Positions 1 to 41,247 of a stretch of 64,000 nt of DNA are shown in pieces. A program made the translations under genes and the position numbers. The stretch spans positions 6,939,612 through 7,003,611 of the forward strand of contig CAJINV010000003.1 of the NCBI GenBank assembly GCA_905178155.1, given 5' to 3'. This DNA comes from Amoebophrya sp. A120. Its lineage: Eukaryota; Protista; Dinoflagellata. Within the stretch, counting starts at the first letter, position 1. Each line of letters begins with the position of its first letter. The notes below the pieces were generated by a model. That model ran no database searches. It saw only the letters and a program-made list of their open reading frames with translations, and was not told the DNA's origin.

Positions 1-3000
1 GCAGGTAGCGCTCAAGCCTTGGCCTTTGGGCGACCACGTTCCTGGAACGTCGTCCCCTCGTTCGGCAGCGTCTGAAGTGCGCTCGTACCTCGGATAGGGG
101 GGCGTCCATACAGCAAAAACGCCGCAGCCCTGCGTTGCTGCACAGCGAGCTGCGCAGCTTTCCTGCGATACCCGAAAGTTCGGGTCCCGCTGTGCGGGAG
201 AGCCCTCGAAAAAAAGCGTGGCCTCCGTTCCTCGATCGTGCACTGCATTTAGATGGTAGTGGTCCGCAGTCACGTCTGATGTATCCAGGATGTCCGCCTG
301 GCCGTCGCACGGACCTAGCAGTACGGATTCTGCGTTTTTTTTGCAACGAAATCCGCGCATGGACGGCACGTAATCGATCACCGGGTGTGCCTGAGTCGCA
401 AATCGTGGCGCCGCGTCCTTGCGACGTCGGCAGTGAATCTCCAAGGAGGGACCCGAGGGGCGCGAGGTCAGCGATCCGGGCGCGCAAGCGGAGTAGAGAG
501 CACAACCGTTTTGATTCTGCCACAGGAAGTAGTTGCAACTCCGAGAACGCGTACACGCAGCTGCGCACGCGCGTTTACTTTCGACGTGGGTCGCGTCTGC
601 AGTCGGCCAGTTCGCAGAACCCAATACGTCCAAGTGTAGCATCTGCGGGACGGGACACCTTTGCTCTGCAATGACCAATTCGTACTGCAGGTCGCTGCAG
701 ACGTCGGGCTCCACGGGCGGGGCGGAAGAGAGGAGAATGCGAGCACTCTTCGTGGTAGATGTTGTAGAAACCACGCCGGGGTTGGCGTCCTGCTCTGCCT
801 CAGTAGTTTCATCAGCGTCTTCGTCTTCACCAGTCGCAGTCGCGTCAGTGGCCACGTCCAGCACCTCCTGCGGTACGGCGGTCACACCAAATGCGCCGAT
901 GCGCGAAGTGCCGTCTTTCAGGAGGTCGCTGAAGAGCGTCGACCAGAGGCGGTTCGGGTGAAATGAGTTGTCTGGCTGGTAATCCTCCGCTCTATATGCA
1001 TTGCAAATATGTCTGGCTCTGGAGGGTTGCAACTTGAACTTGTGATGCTATCTCTGGATTCTATTCTATAAAAAAATCTGTATTGCATGACGAGCAACAA
1101 GAGCGGTCCAGTTTGTGCTACGCGTATCGTATCGCATCGCTTTGACATTTGACTCCTGTCAGGGTGGCGCTAGAACAGATTTAGCCTCTGCCAATGCCGT
1201 GGCGTTAGAACAGATTTAGCCTCTGCCAATGCCCCTAGGTGGGCACCCGTTCCACGTCCTACAGATACCACCCGACCGCATCCGCCGAACCGTTTCCGAT
1301 TTCTTACGCGTGCGTACGGCCAGTGGGCGCTAGATGTGGCTGACCTGCTTTACCATCCAAGCCCGCGAGCAAGGTGGAGCTCCAGCGTTGCCTTGTTGGG
1401 TTATTCTTACAAACTTGGAACGCTACTGCTTTTGTGGTCGGTTGCGCGCTAGATATAGGCATTTTTCATGCGGAGTAGGCATCACGGAGCCGTCTAAAAA
1501 TCTGTGACGCTACGTCATGCATTACAGGCGTTATGGGTCGTCATGGAAAATCTGCATGACAAGTCTTGCAACCACCTTCCAGACCCAGACATGTTTGCAT
1601 TTGATACTCTAGTGAAATGCCACACGTCTTCATCGTTGAACGAAATTCGCACCACCGATTCCCCGAGAACACCGTCAGACTGCACTGCGATCACCACTTC
1701 TTGTTGCGAAGGCAACCTGAACTTCTGGCCAGCGGACGTTGACGTCGGGTGGTCCCTGTAGTATGTGACTTCCTGTGCGGTTTCCGTATGTGTCGACCCC
1801 GCACGACTGCAGGTGAAGAATGCACGCCCACTGTGGCCGAAGTAGTACATGAAGTCTTCGAGGGCGTGCGGGTCGTACCCTGCTGTGTTCGCCAGGTCAA
1901 CACTGGCGTCTGCAAAGGCGCTCTGCTCATCACGGTATCTTTGCACATACACGGAAAACGGACCTGGATGGAGCCGGATACGAATCTCGCGCCAGGCGTA
2001 CCGCGCCAGGGGCGGGGAACCAGCGCTACCTTGTTGTTGGGGGAGCAGCGAACTGAACTGAAGACCGACTTGCGCTCCTGCCCGCGCTTGCTGCGATGAA
2101 GATTCGTCCTCGACGCAGTGGATGTACCCCGTGGCCGTCGCGGCAGACATCCTCTCCTTCCGCACAGCGGCGTCTTCCTCCGGCGTAGAAGCACTCGCTG
2201 CTCGCCGGTTATGAAAGTGCGCAAAAGTTGTTCCCTGCCCCTGCACCTGCTAATGCTCTCCTGATACGAACATAACTCGAGATGGAGAAATTATGCGACA
2301 CGCATTGTATATTGCACAACTTTGCCACCTCGTGCCTCATGTATGCAACGAGCAGCGGAGCATACGCCTTCGTGTCGAGGAGGGAAGACAACAGGCGAGC
2401 TGCACCGAAGCGCCAATGCCATCATCCACAGGACACAAGTCCCAGGAACTTTGCCGCTCAGTCAAAGTCATGTCTTATTCTTCATGCAAAATAAAAAAAA
2501 GATAAACAGCAAGAACGCAATTGCCGTGGCCATCTCTCGCACGACTTGCGCTGCTCAGGTAGCTGCACATGATACATGTCTTATCGCATACCAAGTTTCA
2601 ACCTCCAGCGAAGCCCAAGCACAACTATCAAAAAGGGCTCGAATCTGAAAACAAGCATGGAATTTTCACGCAAAAGGAGCAGGAGAAGCACAATACGATC
2701 GTCAGGCATGATGATTGCAGCTTCCGCTACGCCACCGGCTCATGGCCTTTAAAACGTGAGGACAGGAGCAGGGAATCGGAGTTGATGCGCACTCTCATAC
2801 AAGCAGTCACCATCGATTTGCTTCGTAAGGACGGACACACCATCAATAGTCCACTGCAGCGGCCGCTCGACGGGTGCATCCTCGTGGAACTCCACAAATT
2901 GGGTGCCTTCGAAGGATGGGCCGCGCATGACGGAGACGTCAGAGCTGGTGGGCCAAAGGGAGGAAGACTTTCGCTTCAGGGTCCACGAAACGGCCTCCGT

Positions 3001-6000
3001 GAAAAAGCGCTTCTTCCAAATCTTCAGGTCTGAAGTTGTCGTAACGGGCGCGGCGGATGCACCAGCGGGTTCTTGGTGCCGCAGCTGCCACTCGGTTCCT
3101 CCAGTCTCCTGCACCTCCTCGAACCCGTCAAAGCCGTAGTACTCCTCGGACGAATGCAAAAACGGGTCGCAGTAGTCCGCGTGCACGCATCTATGGAAGT
3201 GTCAGGATCGAAATCGAAAAGGTTGAGCTACTAACTTGCCATGCATAAAATGGATGCCAGTTGGAGCCCAGTTTCCAAGAGGCGCATGACAAATTTTTCG
3301 AGCGCCGGAATTCAATCTGTCATGCTGTTTGGGCGCAGAAGACTGCTTTTGTCATGCTACTTTAGCAAGTCTATTTCAAATCCTAAACAGGCTCACAATC
3401 GGCCTCACTTGCCATCCCCGCAAGACAGACACAGGCACCCCATGCCTTACATTTTATGCATATACAAGTTCTATTTCGATTTTGTCGATTTCGGTCCTGA
3501 CGCTTCCATAGCATCGCAAAACCACGTAAACGGTGCACTGCACACGGGTCAGAAACTCGACACGGGACGCATCCCGGACTAGGCCGGACACGAGCTGGAC
3601 CCGGCGGTGCCACGCTCCGAGGTTGGCCTCGGCGGGCGGCAGTACCTGGTAAAACGGTGCGTCGCTAGACGCGGAGAAGCTCTTCACTTCAGTCTCTTCC
3701 GGAAAGGCTTGCGTGAGGTTTCGCCAATGCCACCCCTCGGAGGTCAGCCTCGCCTGCCGCAGATTTATCTCGTCAAGATCCACATCCTCGAAGTCAAAGC
3801 TCGTTGCGGTGTACATGGCTTGTCGAAACTTGGAAATATGGACCACCGGCTGGAGAAAATTCTTTCGGCTGCCCTCCACGGCGCGAATGGGAAGGTCGGC
3901 CACAAGTCCAGCTGATGAAGCGTGCGACCCTCCGCCTAGTTGCGCGCCACCGACGAGAAAGCTACCTAGGCGCTCGCTCGAACCGCGCACCCAGCCTTCT
4001 AGAGGCTCCGCCTTGCAGCAAAATGCGCTGCTCATACCGATACCGACGTCCGCATACTGCGAGATACACCGCTGAAAAGCTGAAGTTTTTAGCTCAGAGG
4101 GAATGAGTGTCATCACGGTTTTGGGAAAGGGCGCCCAACCGTTAAAGTTGTTGTCGCACATTGCGTTCGGGGTGGTAGACGCGGCCATTGAGTGCACGAC
4201 AAACGAGTACAGGCTCGCTGATTCCCAGCTGGACGACAACGACGAGGAAGGCACGTTTATTCCATCTTCGCTGCTGGTGAAGTGGTCGAATCCCGCTGCA
4301 TCCAGGCGATGCACATCCGCGCGGAGGAAGGTTTCGTAGCTCGTCAAGGTTGACGCTGCGGCGCTGCCGAGATCTTGTTCCGGGTTTTGCTGATCAACAC
4401 CAAGAAGCGCCCCGCGACCTGAACCAGCAAGCTGTTGCACGGTGAAGGTGAAGCAATCCGAACTGAATCCCTGTACGCGCATCAAGAAGCCCGCGCAAGA
4501 ACCCGCCGCATCCTCTCGACACCTGATCGCGCACTCGGTGGCGGTTTCCACGGCGGAAATGCTGGAGGAAAACGAAGAGCCGAACACTGCGGCATCAGGG
4601 GTGTTTTGCTCGTGATCCCAAAACAGCTTGCGGCCCGTGTTATCCAGGGGCCACCCGCTCCCCACGCGATAGAATCCGAACACGGGAGCGGCGACAAGGG
4701 CCGACGAGACGTGATGCCCAACCACGCGATAGCAATGTCGCTCCTGATCCTGTCCGCTTCCACTGGCATCAGTCCACGAAAGCAACCCACGAAAGAACCG
4801 ACACGTGCCCCGCACCGGACCTTGACCCGTAAACCGGTCAGACGCAAAGTACGTGAATCCGGAGCATGCACCGGTCCCAAACGCAGTGACAAAATCAGCA
4901 CAGAGTTGCATGCACGTCGCTGGGTTGCCGGACGTGGAGTAGGGTCCCTGGAGGTCATCGTCCTCGACCAAGTCGTCCGGATAGTCAACCAGAGTTGTCG
5001 TGCGCCTGATGAGCGGTGGGATCGTTCGCCAATCATTGACTTCGCCGCCAGTGTCAGCAGGAACCAAGACTTCCAGGTCGACAAGCGCGCTCATGTTCAG
5101 GATTCGTGTTCCACTGCAAGCGGAGTTCGTTTCTACGTGCCAGTGCAGCGCAGTCCCGAGCCCCACGAAGGCGCCTGCGTTAGTATCTTCCACCGCGGTA
5201 GAGACCATCGTAGAGGAGGAAGACGAGGAGCCCCCCGCGCGTTGTTCTTGTTCCTCCGTCGTTCTGCCGAGTGCTGCAGTTGTGCCGGTTTTCACGTAAC
5301 AAGACTTCTTGCCGGAGGCGCTACTGGCGGTGTACTGCACGTCTTCACTTGTGGCCACCGACGTGGTGGTTGTTCTACTGATGTCGACTTGACGCATAAG
5401 CCTCACTTTTGTTCCACCACGGCAGGAGGCCGAGGACGGGGAGGACCCGCTACCCACGGTAGTGTCTTGGCTTTCGGTTTCGCCACCAGCTTGCTGTGCG
5501 TCGACGTCATCTTCTGTATACTCGGCTTCGTCGGACCAGCTCGTGAAACCGGCGCAGTCAGAGTAACGGTTGCACAGAAGCTGCCCCTCGAGTGCGGTCA
5601 TACGTTGCCGAGTTACTCCAGCGCAGGAATTTCCCTCGGCGTCGTCCACGTCTCCGTCGAGCACCACGTTGCGGCACGCAGGGTAGCGGGCATCGAATGG
5701 GGTCGCGCACAAATAGCCCAGCTTCGTCGCAGCTGAAGTTGTGCCACCCGGCATCGCATCAGGAGACGCCGAGCACTCCACGCCGAGGACGACCTCGTAG
5801 CGCGGACCGTCTGCTGTGGGGAATGTAGGAGGAGGGGACGAGCTCCCCATGGTGGAAGCTGAGAAACCCGGCCACCAGGGAGCGTCCGCCGCACCGCAAG
5901 AGCGGGAGCCTCCCACTTGGCCATGCCGGAGCAATTCGAGTGCCAAAGCGGACAGCTCTCGGTCTGGGGTGCAAAACTCGTCCGCAGCGTCACCGCGCGG

Positions 6001-9000
6001 ACACTGCGTCCATTCTCGCCCGCTACTTGTCACGCAGTGCCCCTTGCCTTGCGGTGGCAGTTGGTCGGTCATCGGATCAGACAGGTCTAGGCTGCGATAG
6101 CATCGCCACTCGTAGTGCTTGTGATTGCCGTCTGCGTCGGCAATAGCGACGTGGCGGGCGTACGAGAGCACGGAGAGCACTGTGGAGCACTCAGACTGCT
6201 CGAGGTACTCGTCATTCTCAAGACTTTGGCAGTATGCGTCAAGACTCTCCTGGAGATTGCAAGACTGCGACGCCAGATCGTTGAAAAATAATGAAACCTC
6301 GTCCTGTAGTTGCGGACTAAAAAAATCCTCGCGCCCGTCTTCAGTGTCCTGTTGAAACAAAGAGCGATGGCGCGAGGCCCCGGAGGACTCGTGGAGCTTC
6401 CTGTTGCCGGTGGTGTCCTCTTTGCGCATGCTCTTGAGCTTGTCCTTCTTGTGACTTTGCAGCATTCTTGGTTGCGCTTTCGTACTACCAGGAGACTTTT
6501 TTCTTCGTCCTGCTCGTAAATCTCGAAGAGAAAGAGATGATCTTCTTTGCTTTGCTTTTCTAGGCGGCCACGAAGTGGTAGAGGACTCCGCAACTGCGCG
6601 ACGTCGAAAGCCTTCATCCTGCGGTGCTTCCAGGAAAAATGTGCTATCGCCATTGAGCAAGCTTTCTGCAGAGCTGAGTGACGTAGACGAAACCAGAATA
6701 CCGGTGCGGTTATTCAGCGCGTCCGTGCCGGAGTCGACGCGATACAGGGCATCGATTGGTCCCATCCGGGATTGCGAGCCGCCCACAGGCCAGGCGAATA
6801 CGGCGTCAAACTCGTGGTCGAGCGGGTCGCGCCAGGTGGTGTCGTAGAGCGTTGCTTTTGGTTTTCCCGTGCTGTCTCCGACGACGAGGCTCAGGTAGGA
6901 CCCATACCGAAGGTCGTCCCACACCCCCGCGAGCTGCGCCGCACCCCAGTCGCTCTCCTGCGGGAGGCAATCTGCGCAACAGAACCCGTGTCTTTTCATG
7001 TACACGGACCCGTCGGCAAATCGCAGCTCGGGGTGGCCATACTCCGCCGCACACAGGAATGCGGCGTACGTGTTTCCTACAAAATTCTGGCCACTGCTGG
7101 GGTTGGCAGCGGCATAAGCCTCCAAAATGCTCTCGGCGGTACTGTGGTCAAACTCGAGCCGATCCTTCATAGCTCGCATTATCGGGAGTTCCACGGCTGC
7201 CTCGGTGTTCTGAGCGGTGCAAGAAAACTTTCCGATGGCCGCTATCGCCTGACTTTGTTCACTTTCAGTAGACCACTCGTCGAAGATAGTAATCGTGCAA
7301 TACCGATTGCGCAGGTTTCCGTGTCGCCCTTGATCTACGTCATTCGGCTTTTGGCGTCGACCACTTGGGTGGTCGAAATTAGTGTCTCCAGTGTGGTGTC
7401 CCTGGTCCTTCCGGTCATACACCCGTTCATACTCGCCAGCGTACCGGTCCGCGATTCCGGCAGCTTCAAACTGCATTTGGCATTCTCGGTACCTCGGGGC
7501 TTTGTTGGTCGACAAAGAGCAACTCGTATCCAAGGAAAAAAAAATGCTCCAGTGACACACTGGCTGCAATTTCAGCAAGAAGCCAAGATAAGAACACCAA
7601 CACAAAGTTGTCCTGCATATACAAAGAAGACTTGCAGCTGCAATGCGAAGATCATTATCATAGAAAAAACAAAGGAACACGCATGAAAAAACGAGGCTCG
7701 CACGCATTTTTTGCTTCGCAAACGTTAACTCTCTTGCTTGTCATACAACACATCAGGGTGTAACAACTGTAACATTTTTTTCGCGCGATAACTTTCCGGA
7801 TACTTCGGGCAAACTGCTAATTCCGTCGGGCAGCACGTCTCCACGCTGCACGAGGAGGGCTCGTCCGTTGCGCAGAAGTTATCCAAGAAAAAAGTGTGCA
7901 AGTGTATGTGTAAACTTGTGCTTTGGATGATGCAAGACTGTCGCACCTGTTATGCTGGATATGCATCCTAGGTCAGTTCAACTGACTCAGATGCATGCGT
8001 GCTGTTTCCACGTACTAGCTGCGCGTGAGACAGGTTTCCTCTGTAATGCAACACGAATTTCTTGTTCTTGTAGAAGTGATGCAGCTGCTTATGAACATGA
8101 TGATCCGATGGAACAACAGGTTACACTAACACAGTTTTTTTCTTGGATAGAAGTTATTCCAGTTGTAATAGCGCTTGAAGACGTTGCCCCCGTTTTCGTG
8201 CGGTTGGCACTGCGTTGGGTCGTCGCGCACGAATCGGAGCGTGTTCCTGTCATTGTACTTCACTCTGTCATTGCAAGAGAAGCGCGGCACGCAACAGTCT
8301 TCCTTCGTGCAGTTACGGGCGAACGGACCCCAGCACAGGTTTGTCGGCTTCAAGTACTCCGTCACAGGATCGCAGGTGACCAAATCGGCAGCTGCCGCCT
8401 CCGCGCAAGAAGCGAGTGGCATCGGGCAGCACTGTTCCTCGGTGCAGGAGGTCGTACTGTCGTTCGCACAGCGCTGCAGGTGGTCCGCATGCGTGTTGTT
8501 CTGAAAGTAGTCAAGGAAGGCTTTGCGAAAGTAGAACTTGTCCGAGTGCGTATACGGAAGATGGCTCACGTACCTGTTCCCGGGACCGTGTTTCTTCCAG
8601 TACCTCCGGTCGATATTTTTGATATAAACCGTCTGGTCATTCGTCAAAAAGAAGTGCGGGTTTGCGGCCATCTCGAGGTAGATTCTGGTCCAATTGTGCG
8701 CATTCAGTGGCAGCGTACTGGCGAAGTTTTTAAAGCGACGCCCCGCGTCGCAGGAGTGTTTTAGAAGAACCCTTTCAGTCCCGTTTAAGAAGAAGTCCGT
8801 CGATCTGTTCGCGGCGATTTGTTCCAGGCTCGGATTCCTCGTACTGTGGGCCGACCGTAGGTCGATCGTGCGGCTGATGTTCCGGTGCACTGCGGCCAGT
8901 GGCCGGATCACGTCGCCGGAACACACGCGCTGCGGCGTGCAGCACTCCTCCGGCGCACAGCTCTCGATGCTCCAGTGGCGGCAGAACTTGCGGGTATCTA

Positions 9001-24000: not shown

Positions 24001-27000
24001 GCACTGCTCATAGAAGGATGGTGGCACGAACGTTCCGCACGGCGGTCGGGGGTGACAGCACTCGTCTTCCTCGCACAAACCGCTTCCACACACGAAGTTT
24101 CGTGTGAAGAAAAAGGTCGCGGGCTTCGCCGCGCACAAAGCGTCTAGCTCGAGATTAGTGCGGCAGATCTGAGGCGTGGTGGTCGTTGTGGTGGTGGTCG
24201 TGCTCGTGGTGGTCACGGTGGTGGTCACGGTCGTGGTGGAGGTGGTGGTCGTGGAGGTCGTCGTGGTCGTGGAAGTTTTGGAATCGTCGAACAGGTCCGC
24301 GAAGAGCGAACTCAAGGCGTCTTCCTCCTCCACCAGGGCCACGGGCTCCTCCAGCCCGTTCGGGCAGCACACGACCGGATCACTGATCTGGTAGGTCCCG
24401 AAAGCGCACTCCGCCATTACCTCCTCGGTGTCCGAGGAGAAGCAACAGTCGTCGTAGCACATCGCGATCATCTATCAAATGCAAATATGTTGTCTGGGAC
24501 TGGAAGATTAAAACTTGTCATGCTTCTAAATCTGAATGATGCAAAAATCTGTGTTGCGTGAGTGCCAAAAGCTGTCCGCTTTTGACCAAGTTGAGAGGGA
24601 GTTTCTCATGCAGGAGAGGCATGAGAGAGACCTCAGAGAATCTGCCATGCTGGGTCTCGCATTCCAGACCTCATGGGTCATGGAAAACCTGCATGACAAA
24701 CATTGCATCCTTCCAGACCCAGACATATTTGCACTGGATATCATCTCCGGCGAGACCACCACCTCCTGTTCCTCCTCCTCCTCCTCCACCGGTGCAAGGA
24801 AGGCGTTCAGGTCTGCTGCCATGCCCCCACCGTCGTCCGCCGAGGAGTCCTCCTCCTCTACTTCCCCTCCCAGAACTTCCTCGTCGCTGACGAGCTCGTC
24901 GGAGGCGCCGACTAGCGAGGCCACAGAATCCATAGACAGACCGAGGTCTGTGATGGTCTCCATGTCCAGCGTGCCGGCGTCCTGCGCAGCCACCACAGCT
25001 GCGGCCACTTTGGCCATGTTCACAGGTTGCAAGGACTTAGAGACTCCTGAGACGCCGGTGGACTCCACTTCCATCGTGGTCACTTCAGCCAGGTAGTTTC
25101 CTATGTTCGCGTCGAGGGCGGTGGTGTCGACAGCCGCCATGCGGTCGTTCACTGCCGCTGCTTTCTCAAGATTGTCTTGCGCAATCGAAAACTCGACAAG
25201 CACTGTCGCTCGTTGCGCCAGGCTCCTAAGCCGCGGCGCAGCTGCACCGTGCATTGGCTGTGCTCGAGAAGTGGAGGACCGTTCTTGTTGCCCTCCAGCA
25301 CTAGCTTGGAGCGCGTCGACCACTTGGTTTACCACCTGGGCGGGTTGCTGGTGCTGCCTTGCCCTCCTCTTGTTTCGGCGCTCACTGTTGGCGCCACGTC
25401 TGCTTGGTACGACGCTACCAAGTCCTCGTCCCGAAAAGCCGGCGCTGTTGTTCTTCCCCGAGCGTTTCGCGGATTCTCTTTGCTGGACGTCCAGAAGCTC
25501 CCGGGCTCTTTTCCGGCTTTGAAGACACGACCGAACATACTTCCGCCAAAAGTGCTTGACTCTCGCCGCAATGTTCGTGCTGCGACGCTTCGACTCCGCC
25601 CCGGCCGCAATCGCGGAAGGCGAAAACAGGCGCGGCTGATCGCTCGCGCGCTTCTGCTTTTCTGATACAAGAAATCGAAGAAATCGGTTTTTCATGTTTT
25701 TCCACAGCTTTGTCTTGCGAATCTGCTTCTGCACGCGTTTCCTCAGGCGCCTCTGCCGCCGAATTGCGAAGCTGCCAGCCTCCGACACAATTTCGTCCGA
25801 CTCTCTTTTGGCATCTTGCGCCGGTTGCTCAGCGTTATTGCCATGATGGGGCTGCTCGTCCTCGTCCAGCCGACGGACCGCAATTTTAAACCCGCCAAGG
25901 ACGACTTCTGCGAGACTGACTTGATATGTAAGTGCGAAAGAAGCCTGAAAAGCGTACGTAACCTCCTCATCCGCCCACAAGTCATCCGCTGTCGTTCCCG
26001 GTGGCAAGCTCATGCCCATGGCGGTCTGACACTCCACGACGGGCAACGTCTGCACCATCTGACCCCCAATGGAAATGAGTCCGCCGGTACAGAAAGGTGG
26101 CGGTTCATCTGTCAGGCACGCCGGATCGATTGCGGTCTTGGCACTCGCGGCCTTGGCTTCGTTCGCGGCGTCGTGGCTCTGACGCATCAACGTATGGCGT
26201 TCTCAAATGTTACATCCTCAACTGTTACATGGATTTGTAAAATCCTAAACCGACCGAAACCACAAACGCAACCCAGAATGGCAAAAGTGCAAGGGGGAAG
26301 ATTTCGCCTTTTGCACTACAGGTTTGGCACAGATTTAAACGCTGTTCAGCCCTTCGGAGATTTGTCATGCGAGGCAGCTTGATGATGTAGATAGAGATAC
26401 TGTTACTGATGAGGTGAGTTTTGCATGACAAATCCATGTAACAATTGAGAATGTAACGTTTGAGAACGCCATACAACGACGTGTCCACGTAAGCTTCCGC
26501 AACGGCTAGCGAAGACGCCTGGAAGGCTTCGCTGGTTTGTTTGGACACCCCCAGCGACTCCACGAGCGTGCCCGTATCGCGATCGTTAATCAGAGGGCAG
26601 TCCATTTCGATCACCTCCCACAAGTATCGCATGTACGACGGCGCTCGTAAGTTCGTCCCATTGAAGTCCGGCCCGGTGAATCCATTGACGGCGACGGACG
26701 TGGGAGCGCCCGTTTGAAAGTCGCAATAGGGAAACCGATCCGCCATTCGAAGCACGTCCCCACAGGTGGGGGGAAGCACACCTGCTCGCACGTACTCAGG
26801 AACTTGCACGAAGGCGTCTTCGCCATCGGGGCAGTTCAGCCGCACTTGCCGGGGCGAGGTCGAACTTGGGTCGAGGTGCTCGCGCACGAACTGCTCTGGG
26901 ACCCCGCGCTCGCCCATGCAATCCCAGTCCGGACGCCCGCAGTTGCAGTCACACCTGCCGTCCGTCCACTGGGAAAAGGGACAGGTCCACTCGCCCACCT

Positions 27001-30000
27001 TGTCAGGGCCCAACAGCCCCGTAGATGCGTCCACCGTGGGAAACCGCCACTGGTAGGCGCGTACGATTTTACGCACTTCCATCGGCCGCGTACTGCTTTT
27101 GTCCGACTTGGAACCACGGACCAGGATCTGCATGCCACTATCTTTGGGGACCTTTTTGGGATCCGAGAACCCCACCCCGTCCACCACCAGAAGCCCGTCG
27201 TGCAGTCCGTCACAAAAGATGGAGGACTGCCCCTGCAGGTACTCAATGCCGTTTTCGTCCATCCCGGGCCGTCCCGTAGCAGTTGTGAAGTCGCAGAACG
27301 GCTGCTCCCGAGCGATGCTGGTCCACCCTGCATCTTGCGTCCAGTCCCGGCGCTCGGGCACCTGATCCAAGTTGGGGACTGCCCGTGGCGCTCCCTGGCC
27401 ATCGGTAGCCCAGGCGAGCAAACTGGTGTCCGACAGCACGGCTCCCGACGCCTGCTGCAGTTTGGTCGTAAATTGAGAAAAGAGGGTCTCGGACGACGAC
27501 AACCGCAGCAAGCTCTCTCCGAAGGTCGTGTTTCGAAGCTCGACAAAGATGCGCAGAGGACGGAACTGGTTGAGGCTGGCGCCGGAGGTTCCACTGGACG
27601 CAGCGAACTGGTACAACAAAAGCGGATCTACCAGGCTCGTAACTGTCAACTTTTGCTTGGCTAGTGTAGTGAAGTAAATCCCGTTGTCGTTAGCCACATC
27701 GATCCACGCCTGCTTCACCTGCGCATTCCACTCGGAGCCGAGGGCGAGCGCCTGCGAGGTGGTGTTCTCGTGCGACGCGGTCGTGCGAAACACAATCTGC
27801 ATCTGCCCGGAAAAATCCAGGAGCGCATCCTCCGTGGCGAGTTCTCTTTTGTTCGTGGAGGAGGATAGTTGTACTCTCATAGAAGTGCTGCCTCTTCCTC
27901 CAGTGCTGGGTCGATCAGCCGGCGCAGTGTCAGCAGGGCTTGAAGTAGATGCAGTTGATTCGCCAGCAGTGAGTTCCCGGAGGCGTCGTGTGGTGGTGGC
28001 GGAGTGGTCCCTTAGCGCCCCCATAGATTGGACCGACCAACCTGTCGAGGGATCAGACAGCGGATTGGTTGCGGAGTAGGAAGCACCACTGGAGGTGGTG
28101 TTGTCGTACTGCTGCGACTGGAAAATGGCGGTGAGCTCCGTGAAATTTTGTGGGTTCAGGTTCAGATTGATGGCCGCCTTGAGGTCGTCGTAGGGAAAGG
28201 AGGTGACGCCGTCAATGTACTTGTCGAACTTCTGGTTCAAAACATACCAGCGACGGGTGGTAAACAGCAGCTCCGCGAGCACCATCCGCGTGCTCGGGTC
28301 GTTCTGCTGGGTCCAGAAGCTCTCCGCGGTGTAGCTGGGGACTTGAAGGGTGATGCCGTTTCGCTTCAGGTCGGGCGACACCAGGTGCTCCGAGATGTCC
28401 AGCTGTAGGACGCTGGCAAGCGCCGCACGCACCCGGTCCTTGAGGGCCGGGAAGTTGTCGTAGCCGACCTCCACGCCCTGTGCGGTGCGCCCCCCGGTGC
28501 TCGCGGTCCAGGGTGCGCCGGTGTTCAACGCACCGCCGGCATCGGAGAATGGTGGCGTCTGAATGACCATCAGGACAGAGTAGGTGCGCTCCCGCACGAA
28601 GCACGCACTCTTGAACGGGTTCTCGTACAGGTCGGGGAAGCACTTCTGTCCCGCCGAGGTGATCACCACGCTCTGCGAGTCGCGGAAGTACAGGTTCCGC
28701 GAATCCTGCAGCTCCGGGACCCGAACCTTCTCTAGGTCGTTCAGTGCGTAGTAGTCGTACAGGGAACTGGAGCTGGGCTGGGTGGCCACGTACGCGCGGG
28801 TGGTAATGCTGCGAACCCCGGAGAAGTCCATGCCCTCGGCGAAGGTGCCAATATCGAGTCGCTGCCGGTACGGAACGGCTTCGCCGCACGTGTTCACGGT
28901 CGTTGTCGCGGTCGATGTTCCGCTGGTCAGCTTCCGGGCGCTGGACGAGGAGGTACTAGTATTAGGCCTATCGTGGTCCCTAGAACTAGCTGCTCGCAGC
29001 TGCCGTTGGCGTCGACTGCTGCTGGCGCTCGAGGACGAAGAAGACGAAGAGGATGACATAATAGTAGAACTGCCACCCCGCATCAACATTTCCGCCGCGT
29101 CGACCTGTATTCGGTAGGGGCCGATCAGGGAGAAGGGAGCTTCCTGCTTGTCCAGCTGCAGGACGAAGTCGGTGTAGTCGCCCGACATGCTGGAGACCAG
29201 TGTGCCCGCGGAGAAGTGCCGGTGTCGAAACTTGCCCCCGAAGCTCTTCAGGTGCAGCAGCTGGGATTTCGTGGCCGCATCTGGTTTCTCCGCCCTCACG
29301 AGCTGCACTAGCTCGTGGATTCCCATGCCGAAGTCGACCTCGACCGTGTAGTTCTGGCCCAGGAAGTCGGTTTCGGGGAACCCGGCCTTGGGGCCGGTGT
29401 TGACGCGAATGATGCGGTACCAGTCCAGCACTTCGGCCCCGAAGGTTATGGAAGCGTCAGGATCGAAATTGACAAAGTTGAAATACAAACAATCTGTCAT
29501 GCATAAAATGCGACGTCTATTGCTGAGGATGCAAGGGAGGCAGATTTTTGTAGTGCTGCTAAGGGCCGCCAAGAATTGTGCTGGTGACTAGCCTGAGAGA
29601 TGTTGCGAGCTCTTTTGCCATAAACAGCATAACAAACTGGCTTTCGATACCGGCAAAATTTGTCATGCGACGACTAGAAACTGTGGGTCCAACTGGTATC
29701 CGTTTTCTGCACTACAAATTTTTTCAACTTTGTTGATTTCGATTCTGACGCTGCCATAAAGGTCCGGTTGCTGTTGAAGTCTGCGGGAGAGAGCGCGGGG
29801 TCCATTTCGACGCCCGCCGCCGCGGCGGCTTGCTGCGCCTGCTCGAACGCCACATACGTGCCGTAGGTCGCAATCGTTTCGTCGTCCAACTGCAGCACCT
29901 GCCGCCCGTTCACGTCGCCCTCGGGCCGGTACTGGCACACGTACTGGTTGAACTCGTTCTTGTTGGTTCGCCCCCCGAAGAGGTCGTCGTACGGACACAC

Positions 30001-33000
30001 CTTGCACTGGCCGCCCCCCATCTCCTCGTATTCCTCCTGATGCCCGAAATAGCCGTACAACATAGTCTCGCCCGGCAGCTGCATCGAGTAGCAGGGCTCG
30101 CTGATAGCCACCTCCTCCTTCGATGGGTCGTAGATGGGGGCGGTGCACCGGCCGAGCGGCGAGCAGATTTCGTGGGGGGCGCAGTACCGGAGCTTGAGCA
30201 ACCCCGTGAGGCAGTCGGGGTCGGTCATGCCGCAGTTGCAGTCGCAAAACAGCCCGTCCATGTAGTTGTTCGGGGGGCAGACCCAAAGCGCGGGGTTGGA
30301 CACCGGAGGGAAGGGGGTCGTGGGGCGGGGTACCTGGAAGTTGAGCCGCTGGGAGCCGATCGAGGTGCCGCGCGTCACTTTGATGGCGGTGTTGTTCACG
30401 CGCGTGGTCACCAACATGCGCTCCACACCCATGTCCCCCGTCACCTGTACGAAGAAGGGAAAGGGCACGGTCCACAACGCGATCGGCGTGCGCAGCCGCA
30501 GCACCTTGTCCGCCTTCGCCGGCTTGTCCGCCATCACGTACGCCGGGTTGAAGAACTTCGTCTTGCCATCGCAGATGATGCCGGCCGCGGAGTACTGGAA
30601 GTTGTTCACGTAGGCCGCGAACAGCATCCAGTCGGTAAGCATGACCGGCACCCGCGCGTAGAACATCTGGACGACGTTGTCCTTCACGGAGGCCGAGATG
30701 TTGAAACCGGTGTCCACCCCGTACAGGACGCGGAGGTTTCGCTCAACGTTCACCTGGTACTTGCCGTAGGCCACGTTCTGCATGAACTCCTTCGCGGCCA
30801 CGGTGCCCCACCCGGAGGACAGGATCAGCATGTTGTCGAAGGAGGCCTTGCGCTTCCAGGTTCCCGTTTCCACGTTCGTGTACAGTTCGGGCGACCAAGT
30901 CCAGTTGGACGTAGTCAGCGTGGTCAGCATGGTCTTCCGTTGGTACTCGCGGTTGAACTTGAGTAGGTAGGGGCGCAGCGACTCGTACTGGTAGCGGTTC
31001 ACGAACCCGACCTGCAGCTGGCAGTTCTTCAGCGCGGACAGCTCGGTGCGGTCGAACCGCATGAAGCCCTGCGCATCGTGGTCGAAGAAAAACTCGTAGC
31101 TGCGAAACACTCCCAGATCGTTGTGCGCATATCGCAACGACTCGTCGAAGGCATGCGTGGTGGACGCCACTGCCATGTCGCGCAGATTGCGCGTCAGGTT
31201 GGCGAAGGGCGACTCCTGATCCGACCCTCCGTAGATGTACGAGTTGAAACTGATACTGGTGCTCTCCATCGCCCCGAACGCTACCGGAATGGGGAGGGTG
31301 TAGCTGGTCATCCCGAAGTGCATGCCCAACTTGTCCACCCAGGAAATTTTCGCGAGCGCGGACATGTCGTCCGCCTCGTAAAACTATCATACTGAAAAGC
31401 GCCCGCAACCTTGAATGTTGTATGAAGGTGGAACATTTAATTTTTGCCAAAGATTGTTGACACGTACGACGCATGGCTTTAGCCAGCTGCGCAGTCAATG
31501 TTGTTTATTCATACTGTAGTACAAAAATAATCCGCGACCTACAAAACCAAAGTTAGTAGGCGACGTCTGTCAGCTCCAAGTTGCAGGAACAACGTTGGAC
31601 TCCGAGTCAAAACTATGCGTCGTACTATTATACTTCCCTTCATGCAAAAATACAAAAAGCTTGAGTGTGCTGTAGGGTTTGAGATGCAAAGTGTTCTGTC
31701 TTCTGGTTGTGGGGCGCCCGCCCTTTTCAGTGCAATAAGAACTCGATCCGCTGTGTCCAGTCGAACGTGAGTGCGGGCACGTCCATGTAGGGCTTCTCCG
31801 GCATGATGCGCTCCGGGAAGCTGGAGTAGTACAGCTCGTTAAAGTGGCACCCCGGAAGGGGCTGCACCGTGTTGGGGTCAGCGTCCAGAAACGCTCCGCT
31901 GGAGAAGTTCAGCTGCGCATTCCGTTCTTCCATGCTCACACTGGTGCCCCGGTAGTTCGCGAGCCCGGGGCACACGTAGTCGAGGTTCAGCTGCACGTCC
32001 CCCCAGGGCTCCAAATTGGTACTGTCGGACGTGAGCAGGGAGGCGGAGTTCCAGCCGAACACGCAGACGAAAGCAAACAGCATGGCAGAGCACGCGGCGC
32101 CACAGAAGGTGGGGGGTAGGTCGGTTGCCTCGGTGTCGCCGGCGCGGTCCATGCGCCGCGCGTTCAGGTCTGTGTATTTGATTGCCCAGTTATGGAAGCG
32201 TCAGGTTTGAAATCGTCAAAGTTGAAATAATTTGTAATGCATAAAATGCGTGACCCGCGGTACGTGTGTTGCAGAGCAGGCAAGTGAGGCCTATTGTAAG
32301 CCTGTTTGGGGTTAAAGCTCGAGCTGCTAAAGTAGCATGAGAGAATCGCTCGTCTTTGCCTAAACAGCATGACAAACTGGATTTAGGGACCGCCGAAATT
32401 TGTCATGCGCCACTTGGAAACTGGGCTCCAACTGGCATCCATTTTATGCATGACAGATTATTTCAACTTTGTCGATTTCAACTCTGACACATCCATACCA
32501 GTGCGGTTCGTAGTATTCAATGTCGGTCCGCTGGATCTCGTCCTCCCAGGGCTCGTAACGCCCCAAATAGAGGTATCCTGAGTAAAAATGTACCCACGCC
32601 AGAGTTGTAATGCAGATTTGCAAAGACAGGAAGACTTGTGATGCGCATCCCCATGAGAGCCATTTCCAATCGTGTTTTGGAATTTGTGATGCTGTGAACA
32701 GGATGAGCAGATGAATCTGTGATGCGGCGGCACTTGCTAACCTGCACTACACTGCATAGCGCAACTTGTCATGCGTGACTCACAAAGCTCCTAGGTTTGT
32801 GTTGCAAAATCCCCATCCTGACTCTGGTGTGGGTACGTTTTTACTCAGGATAAGAGGTAATTCCACCGCCACCGCTCATCAGGAAACCGACCCGGGAGGG
32901 CGGGAATTTTTTCGATTTCTGGTTCCGCCTATCCGAGTGCACAACCCGCCCTCTCAACATCTCCCTTCGTTGGAAAAGTAAAAAGCTGGTCGTGGGCCAG

Positions 33001-34663
33001 CAACTACACATAGAAAAACCGGGAAAGTCCTAGCTTCTGTAAAGACGAGATTCTGCGTGCTTCGAAGAGTACTTACACGCAGGACCAGGAGCTTGGATGA
33101 TCCTAGTGCTGGTGTTTGTAGTGCGAGTGCTGCAGCAACAACACAACAACTTACACAACTTGTCAAGATGCAATACTCGCAAGGCCGCTCACTGCTAATA
33201 AACAAAGGCAGTTCTAATCCAATCATTTTACATCATGACAGCAAGAAATTAGTTCAGGTGTGGTCAGAAGGCAGCTTGTGTGCACTCTGATATCTCCGGC
33301 GGAACGTATTTCTCCCTGATCACGTTCCCGTCCTCGTCAAACTCCCGGCCTTTATCAAATGTAAAAGTGTCTGGGTCTGGAAGAACGCAACCTGTCATGC
33401 TAAATCTGAAGCATGCAAAAATCAGTGTTGCATGATTACCAAAAGTCGTCCAATTTTGACCAAGTCGCGAGGAAGTTTCTCATGCAGGATAGGCATGAGA
33501 GAGATCGCGCAGAATCTTCTGTCATGCTAGGTCCTGCATTCCAGACCTCATGGGTCATCGTCATGGAAAAGCTGCATGACAAATCGCGCACTCTTCCAGA
33601 CCCAGACATTTTTACATTTCATAGCCTTCAAGAACTTTCAATTCCGGTAGATAGGGTTTGCACTTATCCTGTGCAAAAGTATCGTACTTCTCGTAGTAAT
33701 CGCAATCATGCATTACAAACTTCCATCCCAAGGGAAAACAGCATGACAGATTCCATTTGTCATGCTGAACGAATTTGTGATGCGATTTCAACTAGTACGA
33801 TGCTTTTGCAATGCATAGCACTTGTCGCGCAGCAACTTTGTGACGCGCCCGTCGTTAAACGTCCGCTCGAGAATATGGAAGCGTCAGGTTTGAAATCGTC
33901 AAAGTTGAAATAATTTGTAATGCATAAAATGCATGACCCGAGGCGCGTGTGTTGCAGAGCAGGCAAGTAAGGCCGACTGTAAGCCTGTTTGGGGTGACAG
34001 CTCGAGCTGCTAAAGGAGCACGAGAAAATCGCTCTTCTTTGCCTAAACAGCATGACAGACTGGATTTAGGGACCGCCGAAATTTGTCATGCGCCACTTGA
34101 AAACTGGGCTCCAACTAGCATCCATTTTATGCATGACAAATTATTTCAACTTTGTCGATTTCAACTCTGACACATCCATAGAGAACGACCAAGATCACGA
34201 GCATCAGAAGGACGAGCACGAAGATGAAGTATCCTATTTAAAAACGTCCCCACCCCATAGTTGTAATGCAAATCTGCATGCGGAAAATGTTTCTCATGTG
34301 GAGCCCCATGAGAAGCATTTTCCAATCGTGTTTTTCAATTTGTCATGCTCCAATCAGCATGGTATGCTAGATCTGTGATGCTGCTGAGCTAGCTCAAACA
34401 GCACTACACTACGAATCCAAATTTGTCATGCAAAACAGCCAAAACTTGTGGATTTGTCTAGCCGATTCCCCATCTTGACTCTGGTGTGGGTACGTTTTTA
34501 CTCAGGATATGAAGAACCCCGTGCTTACCATGCACAGGAATAACGTGAGTCCCGCAACTAGCAGGAACACCAACCGCGCATTTCGAAGACACCACTGAAC
34601 GAGCCGGTCCTTCCATCCGGGGCGGATGAACGTCCCCTTCGGAGGCGCGAGAAGATCCACCAT
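1..34663 (-). CDS. Giant multi-exon membrane-anchored adhesin-like protein (>=9,144 aa, 3' end beyond window); 23 exons separated by 22 TIR introners
   Basis: ATG at 34663 in AAAATG context with an in-frame stop upstream. Begins MVDLLAPPKG, followed by a long hydrophobic segment (LVFLLVAGLTLFLCMVSTGFFIFVLVLLMLVILVVL). Removing each of the 22 elements plus one 5-bp DR joins the long track ORFs in frame (e.g. LRC|VHAD, NNF|CATD, EV|WVGD, EM|IAMC, SL|MRQS, TF|GAEV). The 27,432 remaining nt equal 9,144 codons, open to base 1. Motifs recognised by eye: PAN/apple (CAAACTRSRSCNYF, CAVRCNNKADCEAYEF), two LamG/ConA-like domains, a fucolectin-like domain (DCGGAVGQIITV...LTFYEVEVW), WSC (YVGCY...CGGAWAISVY), C..C...ECC repeats and CDCNCG..D.DC motifs. 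Confidence 0.85.
995..1606. mobile_element. Introner family A (TIR intron), internally expanded
   Basis: TATGCATTGCAAATATGTCTGG ... CCAGACATGTTTGCATTTGATA; perfect DR ctcta; removal gives HFTR|AEDY in frame. Confidence 0.9.
1164..1233. repeat. 35-bp tandem duplication inside introner
   Basis: gtggcg(c/t)tagaacagatttagcctctgccaatgcc x2. Confidence 0.95.
2210..2799. mobile_element. Degenerate introner (singleton)
   Basis: TATGAAAGTGCGCA vs reverse-complemented end TATGAGAGTGCGCA; DR decayed (ccggt/caagc); removal gives DCL|RAAS in frame. Confidence 0.8.
3192..3510. mobile_element. Introner family B (orientation 1)
   Basis: TATGGAAGTGTCAGGATCGAAATCG ... CGATTTCGGTCCTGACGCTTCCATA; perfect DR gcatc; LRC|VHAD. 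Confidence 0.92.
7527..7790. mobile_element. Degenerate introner (family C-like ends)
   Basis: TATCCAAGGAAAAAAAAATG ... CATTTTTTTCGCGCGATA; DR actcg/acttt; PES|CSLS in frame. Confidence 0.8.
7880..8149. mobile_element. Introner (family C-like ends)
   Basis: TATCCAAGAAAAAA ... TTTTTTCTTGGATA; perfect DR gaagt; NNF|CATD. Confidence 0.88.
9396..9441 (-). repeat. 21-bp coding tandem repeat (GGGMEGM x2)
   Basis: cacccattccctccatcccac duplicated. Confidence 0.8.
10073..10560. mobile_element. Degenerate introner (singleton)
   Basis: TATAGAGGGG..TAAGTGAATGCCCTT vs reverse-complemented end TATGGAGGAGG..TAAGTGAGTGTCCTT; DR gactg/aactg; TRQ|SAPG in frame. Confidence 0.82.
11326..11683. mobile_element. 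Introner family A (degenerate), splits a LamG-like domain
   Basis: TATGCATTGCAAATATGTCTG ... CAGACATATTTGCGTTTGGTA; DR ctgcg/cggcg; GAPA|GAPAESVHGQ. Confidence 0.85.
12262..12426. mobile_element. Introner family F
   Basis: TATGCACTGCAAAAGTATCG ... CGATACGTTTGCAATGCATA; perfect DR tgtgt; GEH|SYQD. Confidence 0.9.
14748..15023. mobile_element. Introner family A (opposite orientation to the 24473 and 33353 copies)
   Basis: TATCAAATGCAAATATGTCTG ... CAGACATATTTGCAATGCATA; perfect DR aaacc; IEV|WVGD. Confidence 0.92.
19889..20228 (-). repeat. 42-bp coding tandem repeat (PGPAPDAAAGDGGT, ~7 copies)
   Basis: Unit cacctgcagctgcgtccggagccggtcctggggtacctccat, visible in DNA and in ORF 14968..21084. 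Confidence 0.95.
21041..21338. mobile_element. Introner with short TIR
   Basis: TATCCCAAG ... CTTAGGATA; perfect DR tgcga; TSR|TLHA. Confidence 0.85.
21676..21982. mobile_element. Degenerate introner (singleton)
   Basis: TATCACAC...CTAGCATAT at both ends (inverted); DR tcgtt/tcttc; GGRLPYAE|ELCE in frame. Confidence 0.82.
22465..22850 (-). repeat. 15-bp coding tandem repeat (GAGAS/GAGAA, roughly 25 units)
   Basis: cctgctcctgaagct / cctgcccctgacgcc arrays. Confidence 0.95.
24473..24740. mobile_element. Introner family A
   Basis: TATCAAATGCAAATATG ... CATATTTGCACTGGATA; perfect DR tcatc; PEM|IAMC. Confidence 0.92.
26193..26473. mobile_element. Introner family D
   Basis: ~46-bp TIR TATGGCGTTCTCAAATGTTACAT...; perfect DR caacg; TSL|MRQS. 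Confidence 0.93.
29447..29758. mobile_element. Introner family B (orientation 2)
   Basis: TATGGAAGCGTCAGGATCGAAATTGACAAAGTTGAAA TIR; perfect DR aaggt; RTF|GAEV. Confidence 0.92.
31385..31737. mobile_element. Degenerate introner (singleton)
   Basis: TATCATACTGAAAAG vs reverse-complemented end TATTGCACTGAAAAG; DR aaaac/agaac; IEF|YEADDM. Confidence 0.85.
32191..32497. mobile_element. Introner family B (orientation 2)
   Basis: TATGGAAGCGTCAGG ... CTGACACATCCATA; perfect DR ccagt; EPHW|AIKY. Confidence 0.93.
32574..32852. mobile_element. Introner family E
   Basis: 32-bp TIR TATCCTGAGTAAAAATGTACCCACGCCAGAGT; perfect DR agagg; WNYL|YLGR. Confidence 0.93.
32930..33292. mobile_element. Degenerate introner (singleton)
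   Basis: TATCCGAGTGCACA vs reverse-complemented end TATCAGAGTGCACA; DR ccgcc/tctcc; frame preserved (VPPE|KPEIEK). Confidence 0.85.
33353..33623. mobile_element. Introner family A
   Basis: TATCAAATGTAAAAGTGTCTGGGTCTGGAAGA TIR; perfect DR gcctt; LEG|REFD. Confidence 0.93.
33665..33817. mobile_element. Introner family F
   Basis: TGCAAAAG(T/C)ATCGTACT inverted at both ends; perfect DR gcact; DKC|KPYL. Confidence 0.9.
33874..34180. mobile_element. Introner family B (orientation 2), near-identical to 32191-32497
   Basis: Same TIRs and 307-bp length; perfect DR gagaa; VVL|ERTF. Confidence 0.93.
34230..34509. mobile_element. Introner family E, splits the N-terminal hydrophobic segment
   Basis: Homologous to 32574-32852; perfect DR tgaag; TGFF|IFVL. 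Confidence 0.92.
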
Positions 34664-37041: not shown

Positions 37042-37266
37042 CTACAGGAGCAGAGGGTTGACAGAGGCGATGAGCATCCCCAGTGACAAGTCTCCGGTGT
37101 AGTGGAGGCCGCCTAGGGTGAGCGCAGGGAGGAAACCGTAGTGAAAAACCGTGTGGGCGCCGCCTTCCCACAGGGTGTAGATGCGGTTCGTCGCGCGAGC
37201 AAGCCCAGTCAGCACGGACTGCGTCGCGTCGGCCCTGTAAACATTCATCAGCAGCTGCGCAGACAT
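37042..37266 (-). CDS. TOM7: Mitochondrial import receptor subunit Tom7-like
   Basis: 74 aa; AAAATG start; motif TVFHYGFLPALTLGG resembles the Tom7 signature (VFHWGFIPLVIYLG) and is followed by a short tail ending NPLLL. Confidence 0.65.
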   Translation of the reverse strand: MSAQLLMNVYRADATQSVLTGLARATNRIYTLWEGGAHTVFHYGFLPALTLGGLHYTGDLSLGMLIASVNPLLL

Positions 37267-40194: not shown

Positions 40195-41247
40195 CTATCG
40201 AAAAAATTGCGACGGGTAGTTTTTTGCTATGCCAGACCCCCAATCCATTTTTTTACCTCGAGCGAAAGCTGTGGAAGTAGGAAAGGATCCCTCGTCCGAA
40301 GGAGCTACGCCAGCGCTTCTACGACTGTTCACGCCCACGGTTCCTCCTGCTTTGGTTGCTTGAGTAAATTTTTGTTTTTGAGCGCCGAAACCCCGCTGCT
40401 TTTTAAGCGATTCTAGACCTGATTTCTCGTCCTCGAGCTCCCTCCGCTTTCGCTGCGCGGCCTGTTCCAGGTCGTGTTTGCGCCGCTGCAAATTCTCGAG
40501 CTTCGTTTCGCTTTGTTGGACCTCGTCAGTAATGCGGTTCAAGTCTACTTGCATCTTTCCCCATTGCCTCTCTTCGTACCGACGCAATCCACGGACTTCG
40601 CACAGGCCCTGCGCCAAGCTGTCGTTAAAATAGTTCCAGTTGAAAAATGTTCGCATGGGGTTGTCGTCGCCATCACCAGCTGACGATGAGCCCGGCAGAG
40701 GCATTTTCGCTTGTTCCTCGTCGCAGGATTTCTTGTAGAAAGTGAAAATGTTCAACAGCTGTCGGCCCTGGTGCTCGATTTCTTCACTTTCTTGCTTCTT
40801 TTTCTGCAGACGTAGCACGTGACTCTGCTTCGTGGCCAAGGTTTGCTCCGCGAGCGCTAGCCTTTTCTGTTTCAGGTTCGTCGCTCTTTCACTCAAGCTT
40901 TTGGCCTCCTTTCGATCCATTTTGATCTGCTCTTCTGCGTTTTGTTTGCGCGCATGGATAGATTGGATTTCCTCAAGTTTTTTGGTGCGAAACTCGTTTG
41001 CTGTCGTCCGCGCTCGCTTGAAGCAGGTCCGCACTTCGATCAAATCACCGAGCTCCACCAGCGGTACCTTGCACTCGCAACACACGGCAGGGTTCCGCTC
41101 ATCGCTTTCCTCTAGGAGGGCTGCATAGCACTGCACGTGATAGAGGTGACCACACACTTCCAGCATCTTGGATAGCTGGCGATCATTGTTGAAATGCAGA
41201 CCCTGCTTGCACTTCACGCAGGCCGCCCCGAGAAGCCAGCTCGGCAT
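40195..41247 (-). CDS. RING-finger (RING-H2-like) coiled-coil protein, probable E3 ligase
   Basis: CVKC...CGHLYHVQC...CCEC at the N-terminus followed by long E/K/Q-rich coiled coil; single exon, 350 aa. Confidence 0.8.
   Translation of the reverse strand: MPSWLLGAACVKCKQGLHFNNDRQLSKMLEVCGHLYHVQCYAALLEESDERNPAVCCECKVPLVELGDLIEVRTCFKRARTTANEFRTKKLEEIQSIHARKQNAEEQIKMDRKEAKSLSERATNLKQKRLALAEQTLATKQSHVLRLQKKKQESEEIEHQGRQLLNIFTFYKKSCDEEQAKMPLPGSSSAGDGDDNPMRTFFNWNYFNDSLAQGLCEVRGLRRYEERQWGKMQVDLNRITDEVQQSETKLENLQRRKHDLEQAAQRKRRELEDEKSGLESLKKQRGFGAQKQKFTQATKAGGTVGVNSRRSAGVAPSDEGSFPTSTAFARGKKMDWGSGIAKNYPSQFFR

Follow-up and report, generated by a model that had tools for sequence, protein, structure and literature searches.

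The introners of Amoebophrya A120 are described, in the portions of PMC7789003 and PMC12130899 drawn on here, as inverted repeats starting with TAT, with direct repeats of 3-5 nucleotides (nt) and non-GT-AG borders. The inverted ends of Amoebophrya introners measure 8-20 nt. Giant genes are not rare in Amoebophrya, the longest exons given in Table 1 of PMC7789003, from which excerpts were used, being 44 and 80 kb. Earlier candidates for host recognition in this parasite are, in the part of PMC6176090 used, TSP1/vWF proteins. The window analysed here is a stretch of 64,000 nt of Amoebophrya sp. A120 (contig CAJINV010000003.1, positions 6,939,612 to 7,003,611), and its positions 1..34663 very probably carry one real giant gene, on the minus strand. 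The first ~2,390 residues (aa) of its product belong, as judged from homology, to an unnamed eukaryotic family without Pfam domains, which has members in Amoebophrya, Vitrella, Cyanophora and Rigifila. The product is read, tentatively, as a glycan-sensing receptor-channel of the cell surface.

The frame was obtained with a cut rule applied uniformly across the gene, by which each TAT…ATA element is excised together with the 5-nt direct repeat that follows it. An automatic search for TAT…ATA inverted ends located 18 of the 22 elements, and four element starts (21982, 11683, 10560 and 7802) were placed by eye with the map of open reading frames (ORFs) in view. The excisions leave 27,420 nt, that is 9,140 codons with 0 stops, from the ATG at 34663 to base 1. 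The initial annotation had proposed one giant gene split by 22 introners, with a continuous frame and a summed exon length divisible by 3, and all of this is borne out; its length of at least 9,144 aa differs by 12 nt from the present count.

1..34663, minus strand: giant gene of at least 9,140 codons in 23 exons, running off the left window edge (frame after 22 excisions)

The exon frames would all agree by chance with a probability of 1.0e-9, most large exons being open in one frame only; the value is 1.1e-6 for the 15 junctions with perfect repeats alone. When 0, 1, 3, 4, 6 or 7 extra bases were cut with each element, 180-231 stops appeared; 2 extra bases gave 0 stops and 8 gave 1. The reading frame thus fixes the cut length modulo 3 only, and it is the direct repeats that select 5. 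Stops occur in all three frames inside each of the 22 introns, the ATG is preceded by an in-frame stop at a distance of 57 nt, and a GT-AG placement with an identical product is possible for one intron only (15023). Third-position GC content is 0.85-0.90 in the first two large exons of the core and 0.57-0.76 in those that follow. Without splicing, the gene appears as 16 stop-to-stop ORFs of at least 100 aa, and the splitting by gene callers that had been foreseen is found in the AT5 orthologue, filed as the consecutive models g14104 and g14105. To call such a gene hidden was nevertheless an overstatement, since the annotation of A25 and A120 is transcript-based, to handle such introns (PMC7789003, in part), and gives two paralogues, of 3,612 and 3,851 aa, one undivided model each.

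The 22 elements resemble A120-type introners in their TAT inverted ends, short direct repeats, non-GT-AG borders, lengths of ~160-620 nt and number per gene. There is no difference of substance, the particular features here being a repeat of 5 nt that follows the terminal ATA and the presence of one family's members in both orientations within the gene; introner splicing is an already described phenomenon, not a new one. The direct repeat at the exon boundary is perfect in 15 elements and matches at 2-4 of 5 positions in the other seven, and 21 elements start with TAT, one with TAC. In duplex energy, the inverted ends pair better than at least 198 of 200 shuffles in 21 cases, the exception being the intron starting at 7802 (intron 19), for which 17 of 200 shuffles were as good. 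Within the window, 13 of the 22 match another introner at E<=1e-6 over 60+ nt, and an Rfam scan gave 0 matches.

34225..34509, minus strand: introner 1, 285 nt, repeat 5/5; crossed by AT5 orthologue
33869..34180, minus strand: introner 2, 312 nt, repeat 5/5; crossed by AT5 orthologue
33660..33817, minus strand: introner 3, 158 nt, repeat 5/5; crossed by AT5 orthologue
33348..33623, minus strand: introner 4, 276 nt, repeat 5/5; crossed by AT5 orthologue
32925..33292, minus strand: introner 5, 368 nt, repeat 3/5; crossed by AT5 orthologue
32569..32852, minus strand: introner 6, 284 nt, repeat 5/5; crossed by AT5 orthologue
32186..32497, minus strand: introner 7, 312 nt, repeat 5/5; crossed by AT5 orthologue
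31380..31737, minus strand: introner 8, 358 nt, repeat 4/5; crossed by AT5 orthologue; dip in likely-RNA depth
29442..29758, minus strand: introner 9, 317 nt, repeat 5/5; X1 contig piece stops at 29441
26188..26473, minus strand: introner 10, 286 nt, repeat 5/5; X1 contig piece stops at 26187; crossed by homologues
24468..24740, minus strand: introner 11, 273 nt, repeat 5/5; exactly 273 nt missing from X3 contig
21671..21982, minus strand: introner 12, 312 nt, repeat 3/5; depth matches spliced form
21036..21338, minus strand: introner 13, 303 nt, repeat 5/5; X1 and X3 pieces stop at 21035
14743..15023, minus strand: introner 14, 281 nt, repeat 5/5; from the cut rule alone
12257..12426, minus strand: introner 15, 170 nt, repeat 5/5; from the cut rule alone
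11321..11683, minus strand: introner 16, 363 nt, repeat 4/5, starts with TAC; cut rule and shuffle test
10068..10560, minus strand: introner 17, 493 nt, repeat 4/5; cut rule, internal Cys-repeat alignment and shuffle test
7875..8149, minus strand: introner 18, 275 nt, repeat 5/5; cut rule and internal Cys-repeat alignment
7522..7802, minus strand: intron 19, 281 nt, repeat 3/5; weakest inverted ends
3187..3510, minus strand: introner 20, 324 nt, repeat 5/5; from the cut rule alone
2205..2799, minus strand: introner 21, 595 nt, repeat 2/5; cut rule and shuffle test
990..1606, minus strand: introner 22, 617 nt, repeat 5/5; from the cut rule alone

Members of one introner family are found in opposite orientations within the gene (33869-34180 vs 3187-3510, 33348-33623 vs 14743-15023, and 33660-33817 vs 12257-12426), which fits recognition by paired ends rather than by splice-site sequence. 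Introner 22 looks composite: its two ends resemble separate parts of the 24740/15023 family, and its middle does not match it. The elements also cluster at the 5' side: seven of the 22 (32186-34509) interrupt the initial 161 codons, which make up 483 of the 27,420 coding nt and in which 0.4 would be expected if they were evenly spread.

Homologous proteins and sequencing reads bear on the first 13 junctions. AT5 g14104 is 58% identical to aa 1-349 across junctions 1-8; five of these have no gap within 14 residues, and near each of the other three, at a distance of 3-6 residues, is a gap of 3 residues. Strong paralogue alignments run over junctions 6 or 7 to 10 and weak ones over junction 11; around junctions 9 and 11 the homologue alignments contain gaps. 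Three runs of one sample, whose status as RNA was guessed, cover the region, and reads were placed on 16001-36000, to which the read checks of junctions (8-13) refer. In an X3 contig, 50 letters correspond to 323 of the genome, exactly the 273 nt of intron 11 being absent, and pieces of X1 and X3 contigs stop at the exon edges 29441, 26187 and 21035, continuing for 331-610 letters. Around introns 12-13 the likely-RNA depth is 5.88 in one bin (5.50 predicted if spliced, 9.51 if retained), 4.36 in another (3.86 and 6.03) and 4.01 in a third, as predicted (4.01); at intron 8 it also matches splicing, not retention. The DNA run X8 is continuous through introns 8, 9, 12 and 13. Splicing of introns 8-13 in the likely RNA is supported in part, directly for intron 11 and indirectly for 8-10, 12 and 13. 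The depth of X1 and X3 falls beyond 35523 while that of X8 stays flat, which suggests that X1 and X3 are RNA and that the leader measures at least 860 nt. The longest contigs of these two runs (X1, 40,626 nt; X3, 32,839 nt), not tied to the locus, would hint at other very long transcripts if they are RNA.

34664..35523, minus strand: likely 5' leader, at least 860 nt, 13 upstream ATGs (X1 contig 34574-35523 and depth fall)

Further left, the gene might give way to others: behind a truncated family member there would then be one or more further genes rich in modules, and one of the weak introns (19, 21, 17 or 16) would hide the boundary. The poor end pairing of intron 19 and the 2/5 repeat of intron 21 allow for this, as do the co-orientation of Amoebophrya genes (PMC7789003, in part) and the position of junctions 14-22 outside the read-covered part, where support comes from frame agreement and repeats, neither from reads nor from homologues. 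The last point also counts against the receptor-channel reading, as do those from the reads: among 15 of the 336 read joints, in a table crowded with repeat joins of the DNA run, none comes from X1 or X3; these two runs stem from one sample and are RNA by guess; on 16001-36000, the RNA run X11 covers no exon and no likely-RNA contig spans the whole gene. However, frames agree across all nine junctions 14-22 (chance 1.0e-4), and copies of one Cys repeat are spread over aa 2435 to 7143, with alignments that cross junctions 17 and 18. No signal-like stretch follows the first Met in any of the 13 downstream exons from 29441 on, and a division into several genes is very improbable. The alignment of the two LamG domains (6.9 bits) is too weak to bear on junction 16.

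The N-terminal part of the single product was placed by homology. A full HMMER search with its 539-aa exon found 334 proteins at E<=0.001, the best being AT5 g14105, A25 GSA25T00004011001 (3,851 aa) and A120 GSA120T00019823001 (3,612 aa), together with Vitrella, Polarella, Cladocopium, Cyanophora and Rigifila proteins. AT5 g14105 is 81% identical to the window protein over 386 aa, and the A25 paralogue 43% over 1,949 columns. In a tree of 19 rows, for which 19 of the 153 stored homologues were offered and P0135 was left out for its short alignment, the window protein groups with AT5 g14105 (100/100), as sister to the A25 and A120 paralogues (99/98). A profile search for further members added only 2, scans of metagenomes with the N-terminal exon and the last exon and of prokaryotes with the paralogue alignment returned no relatives, and searches for five homologue accessions and for the family or gene found no describing paper, subscription papers and supplements being outside their scope. 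Among 18 homologues searched against Pfam, none has a telling domain, and there was no ASC, P2X or ERGIC match at E 0.1. A single-sequence model of the 539-aa exon has a predicted local distance difference test (pLDDT) of 31.

Full-length members of this family have a hydrophobic helix close to each terminus. Like GSA25T00004011001, GSA120T00019823001, AT5 g14104/g14105 and Vitrella CEM02545, the window protein has the first helix, the ectodomain core and two CDCxCG motifs; unlike the two Amoebophrya paralogues, it has an extra N-terminal hydrophobic stretch, which it shares with the AT5 orthologue. The N-terminal membrane anchor of the initial annotation thus corresponds to two hydrophobic stretches, aa 31-66 and ~186-207, the second being the first membrane helix of the family; the ~2,390 residues are not a mere anchor but make up the core of a family with two membrane helices. 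After aa 207 there is one weak hydrophobic stretch only.

34181..34573, minus strand: aa 31-66, hydrophobic and likely a helical hairpin, interrupted by introner 1; shared with AT5 orthologue, absent from two paralogues
32048..32113, minus strand: first family membrane helix, aa 186-207; aligned with 11 homologues
24265..32904, minus strand: family core, aa 121-2390, with two CDCNCG motifs (aa 689 and 1681); BLASTP to P0002, P0003 and P0005

Basic motifs of the form [RK][RKQ]L are enriched in the paralogue ectodomains P0002 and P0003 (15 vs 3.0 and 13 vs 3.3; 0/300 shuffles). The enrichment is weak in the window core (aa 200-2400; 5 vs 2.2, 24/300 shuffles) and absent from the expansion that follows it. 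They are possible processing sites.

All 10 aligned homologues have in common a C-terminal block of ~400 aa that closes with a Gly-rich helix. From the last CDCxCG motif to this block there are 119-126 aa in four members, 572 in Vitrella and ~1,200 in the Amoebophrya paralogues (range 119-1,209), and this variation marks the place as the family's variable site. In the window protein this distance is at least 7,459 aa, and the block is not reached; compared with the family members, this copy has 6,750+ residues of Cys, LamG and PAN modules at that linker. The simplest inference, and a fairly probable one, is that the conserved block and second helix lie beyond base 1.

A channel-type fold had been suspected from the helix pattern before any structure search. 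The block was modelled from the homologue P0010 with 16 sequences (pLDDT 68.7, predicted template modelling score 0.57). With Foldseek, PAC/TMEM206 accounts for all seven matches at E<=0.001, and ASIC and P2X rank below. In a structure search independent of Foldseek, the top 14 of 21 rows are Erv41, PAC, ENaC/ASIC/FaNaC or P2X, with Z values of 5.2 for Erv41, 4.9 for PAC and 4.3 for ENaC, and a second run agrees. On this model, and at low scores, the block is predicted to have a beta-sandwich-plus-helix fold like that of Erv41, PAC and ENaC, a fairly probable assignment. The family shares with PAC/TMEM206, DEG/ENaC/ASIC and P2X a topology in which two helices flank a large outer loop that contains Cys and, in the homologue model, a predicted beta-sandwich leading into a Gly-rich second helix. 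It differs in having no profile match and a loop 3 to >20 times longer, and in the family a trimer and a pore are putative. The likeness to channels is one of working alike, on the modelled fold, and not of family membership. Homologues of DEG/ENaC recognisable by profile are reported from a few protists, and the unnamed family is not among them, in the part of bioRxiv 10.1101/2022.06.28.497943 that was used.

Erv41 being the best structural match of the block (root-mean-square deviation 5.1, 147 aligned), the gene product could also be an intracellular receptor like Erv41/Erv46, with a core in the secretory pathway and modules that capture glycosylated cargo for secretory organelles. The family and Erv41/Erv46 share the two-helix topology, and several homologues have before the first helix a pattern 'lD.yG...T..G', which we take to recall the ERGIC N-terminus. 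But PAC and ENaC are tied with Erv41 within 1 Z, and neither ERGIC_N nor COPIIcoated_ERV gave a profile match in the homologues. Erv41 and Erv46 have a short tail with a di-lysine retrieval signal; by contrast, none of the five full-length homologue C-termini inspected has this motif, and the paralogue tails measure 293-458 aa. The loop is also far larger, and one of >9,000 aa would suit a COPI or COPII vesicle poorly. Such a receptor is improbable.

The expansion is built of repeated modules joined by Thr-rich and Gly-Ala linkers. Sixteen Cys repeats (C..C..ECC), from which a profile was built, form four blocks, and the whole protein has 58 N-glycosylation sequons. As the initial annotation had stated, PAN/apple and LamG-like modules are present along with Cys-rich and Thr-rich ones: in Pfam, LamG scores above cut-off twice and PAN_1 in 3 of 16 exon pieces, with two more below cut-off, and a regular expression finds nine PAN-like Cys patterns. 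The WSC and fucolectin-like modules that it also named find no Pfam support, with no such family at E up to 10 in any of five segments. A candidate 'Toxin_R_bind_N' (E 0.14) was rejected as weak and lying within a LamG domain.

23899..24273, minus strand: beginning of the expansion, a Thr-rich linker with the first two of the Cys repeats (spliced translation)
22459..22953, minus strand: Gly-Ala-Ser tandem repeat, 15-nt unit (repeat scan)
19870..20262, minus strand: Pro-Asp-Ala-Gly tandem repeat, 42-nt unit (repeat scan)
18490..19677, minus strand: block of 6 Cys repeats (internal alignment)
17713..18126, minus strand: LamG domain 1, PF13385, 48.5 bits (cut-off 27.6)
15517..15609, minus strand: PAN module, PF00024, exon score 29.6 bits (cut-off 21.4)
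14534..15387, minus strand: fucolectin-like segment, spanning introner 14; by motif only, Pfam negative
12554..13057, minus strand: WSC-like segment; by motif only, Pfam negative
12054..12230, minus strand: PAN module, 25.4 bits
10875..11756, minus strand: LamG domain 2, 37.7 bits from profile position 41; start likely in the exon before introner 16
7809..10715, minus strand: two blocks with 8 Cys repeats; internal alignments cross junctions 17 and 18
88..612, minus strand: two PAN modules, PAN_1 25.4 bits

None of the 153 stored homologues matches the Cys/LamG/PAN array of the window copy, nor the Cys repeat taken by itself. Word-index protein searches with the LamG/PAN region gave no match at 876-2,500 aa or 3,507-5,000 aa, and sequence searches of the PDB gave a weak LamG-type match only (4dqa, E 0.0014).

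LamG and PAN modules often bind glycans, and an attachment role, as first suggested, is plausible. The protein could then be a giant adhesin that does not conduct, derived from the two-helix family with its C-terminal core lost or unused, whose LamG/PAN/Cys array tethers the parasite to host glycans. Its modules above cut-off are in keeping with this, as are the 9,140 aa without a C-terminal block and the extra hydrophobic stretch common to the AT5 orthologue. With apicomplexan PAN/apple microneme adhesins such as Toxoplasma P104 it shares multiple PAN modules; in contrast to P104 (991 aa, with a signal peptide) it is N-terminally anchored, has 9,140+ aa and contains an unrelated family core. 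The part of PMC3261864 used describes a Toxoplasma PAN/apple protein that binds chondroitin sulfate, and that of PMC6176090 many TSP1/vWF adhesin-like proteins encoded by Amoebophrya. However, the conserved core of ~2,390 residues exceeds what anchoring would require, the frame has not closed at base 1, and the insertion stands at a site where the family already varies. The adhesin is a somewhat doubtful reading, close behind the receptor-channel; the Erv41-like receptor and several genes are less likely, and the remainder falls to unforeseen roles.

The favoured, still tentative, reading is that of a surface receptor-channel sensing glycans, with its second helix beyond the left edge; that it conducts ions has about an even chance. 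With the 22 inverted-repeat elements removed, the 6,750+ extra residues would form one huge outer loop at the variable linker, provided that the second helix and the C-terminal block follow beyond the edge. The protein would have its short N-terminus, with the residues ahead of aa 186, on the cytosolic side, the core and C-terminal block would fold together around the inserted array, and the subunits may trimerise and form a pore. Through its LamG and PAN modules the protein would attach to glycans of the host or the environment and pass the contact to the pore, which may be gated by glycan contact or by tension on the long loop.

Several results on the fold weigh against this reading. The block with the second helix was not found within the window (best E 1.4), and the structural evidence was drawn from P0010, not from the window protein. 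The TM-scores of the PAC/TMEM206 matches are 0.12-0.16, all Z values are <=5.2 and thus <8, with deviations of 4.7-13.7, a range that the tool calls a possibly common arrangement, and the highest belongs to Erv41, which is not a channel. There is no sequence-profile match to DEG/ENaC (PF00858), P2X or PAC in the window exons or the homologues, and Pfam searches of 16 homologues at E 10 gave no ASC, P2X or ERGIC match. A bolder version is unlikely: protists would have a branch of the ENaC/PAC/P2X channel fold that is pan-eukaryotic and has gone unrecognised, and the parasite member, with its lectin-module loop of >9,000 residues, would be a long-range tethered host-contact channel triggering invasion.

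The neighbouring ORFs were scanned on the minus strand only.

40198-41247, minus strand: RING-like protein (weak matches)
42548-43924, minus strand: nucleotide-diphospho-sugar transferase
44897-45355, minus strand: Fcf1
57906-59174, minus strand: protein kinase, split by an introner-like element

A 74-aa ORF at 37045-37266 (minus strand) has a weak Tom7 match (E 0.0016, below cut-off). Exact 56-nt direct repeats (37611-37666 and 39004-39059) enclose a GC-rich (64%) stretch of ~1.3 kb; the whole, 37611-39059, is possibly a mobile element and has no Pfam or Rfam match. More TAT…ATA elements with 4-5 nt repeats occur on the minus strand within 49902-59248, with starts at 59248, 57953, 54450, 53955, 52128, 50406 and 50254, and the window contains many elements of 110-620 nt with inverted ends, in repeated families.

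The subject at stake is how Amoebophrya recognises the bloom-forming dinoflagellates that it kills. If the receptor-channel reading is true, this gene would couple a lectin array to a channel-type core and give a testable receptor. Whichever reading applies, the locus exposes a two-helix family without Pfam domains across alveolates, a glaucophyte and Rigifila, whose short members of ~1,300-1,700 aa are expressible.

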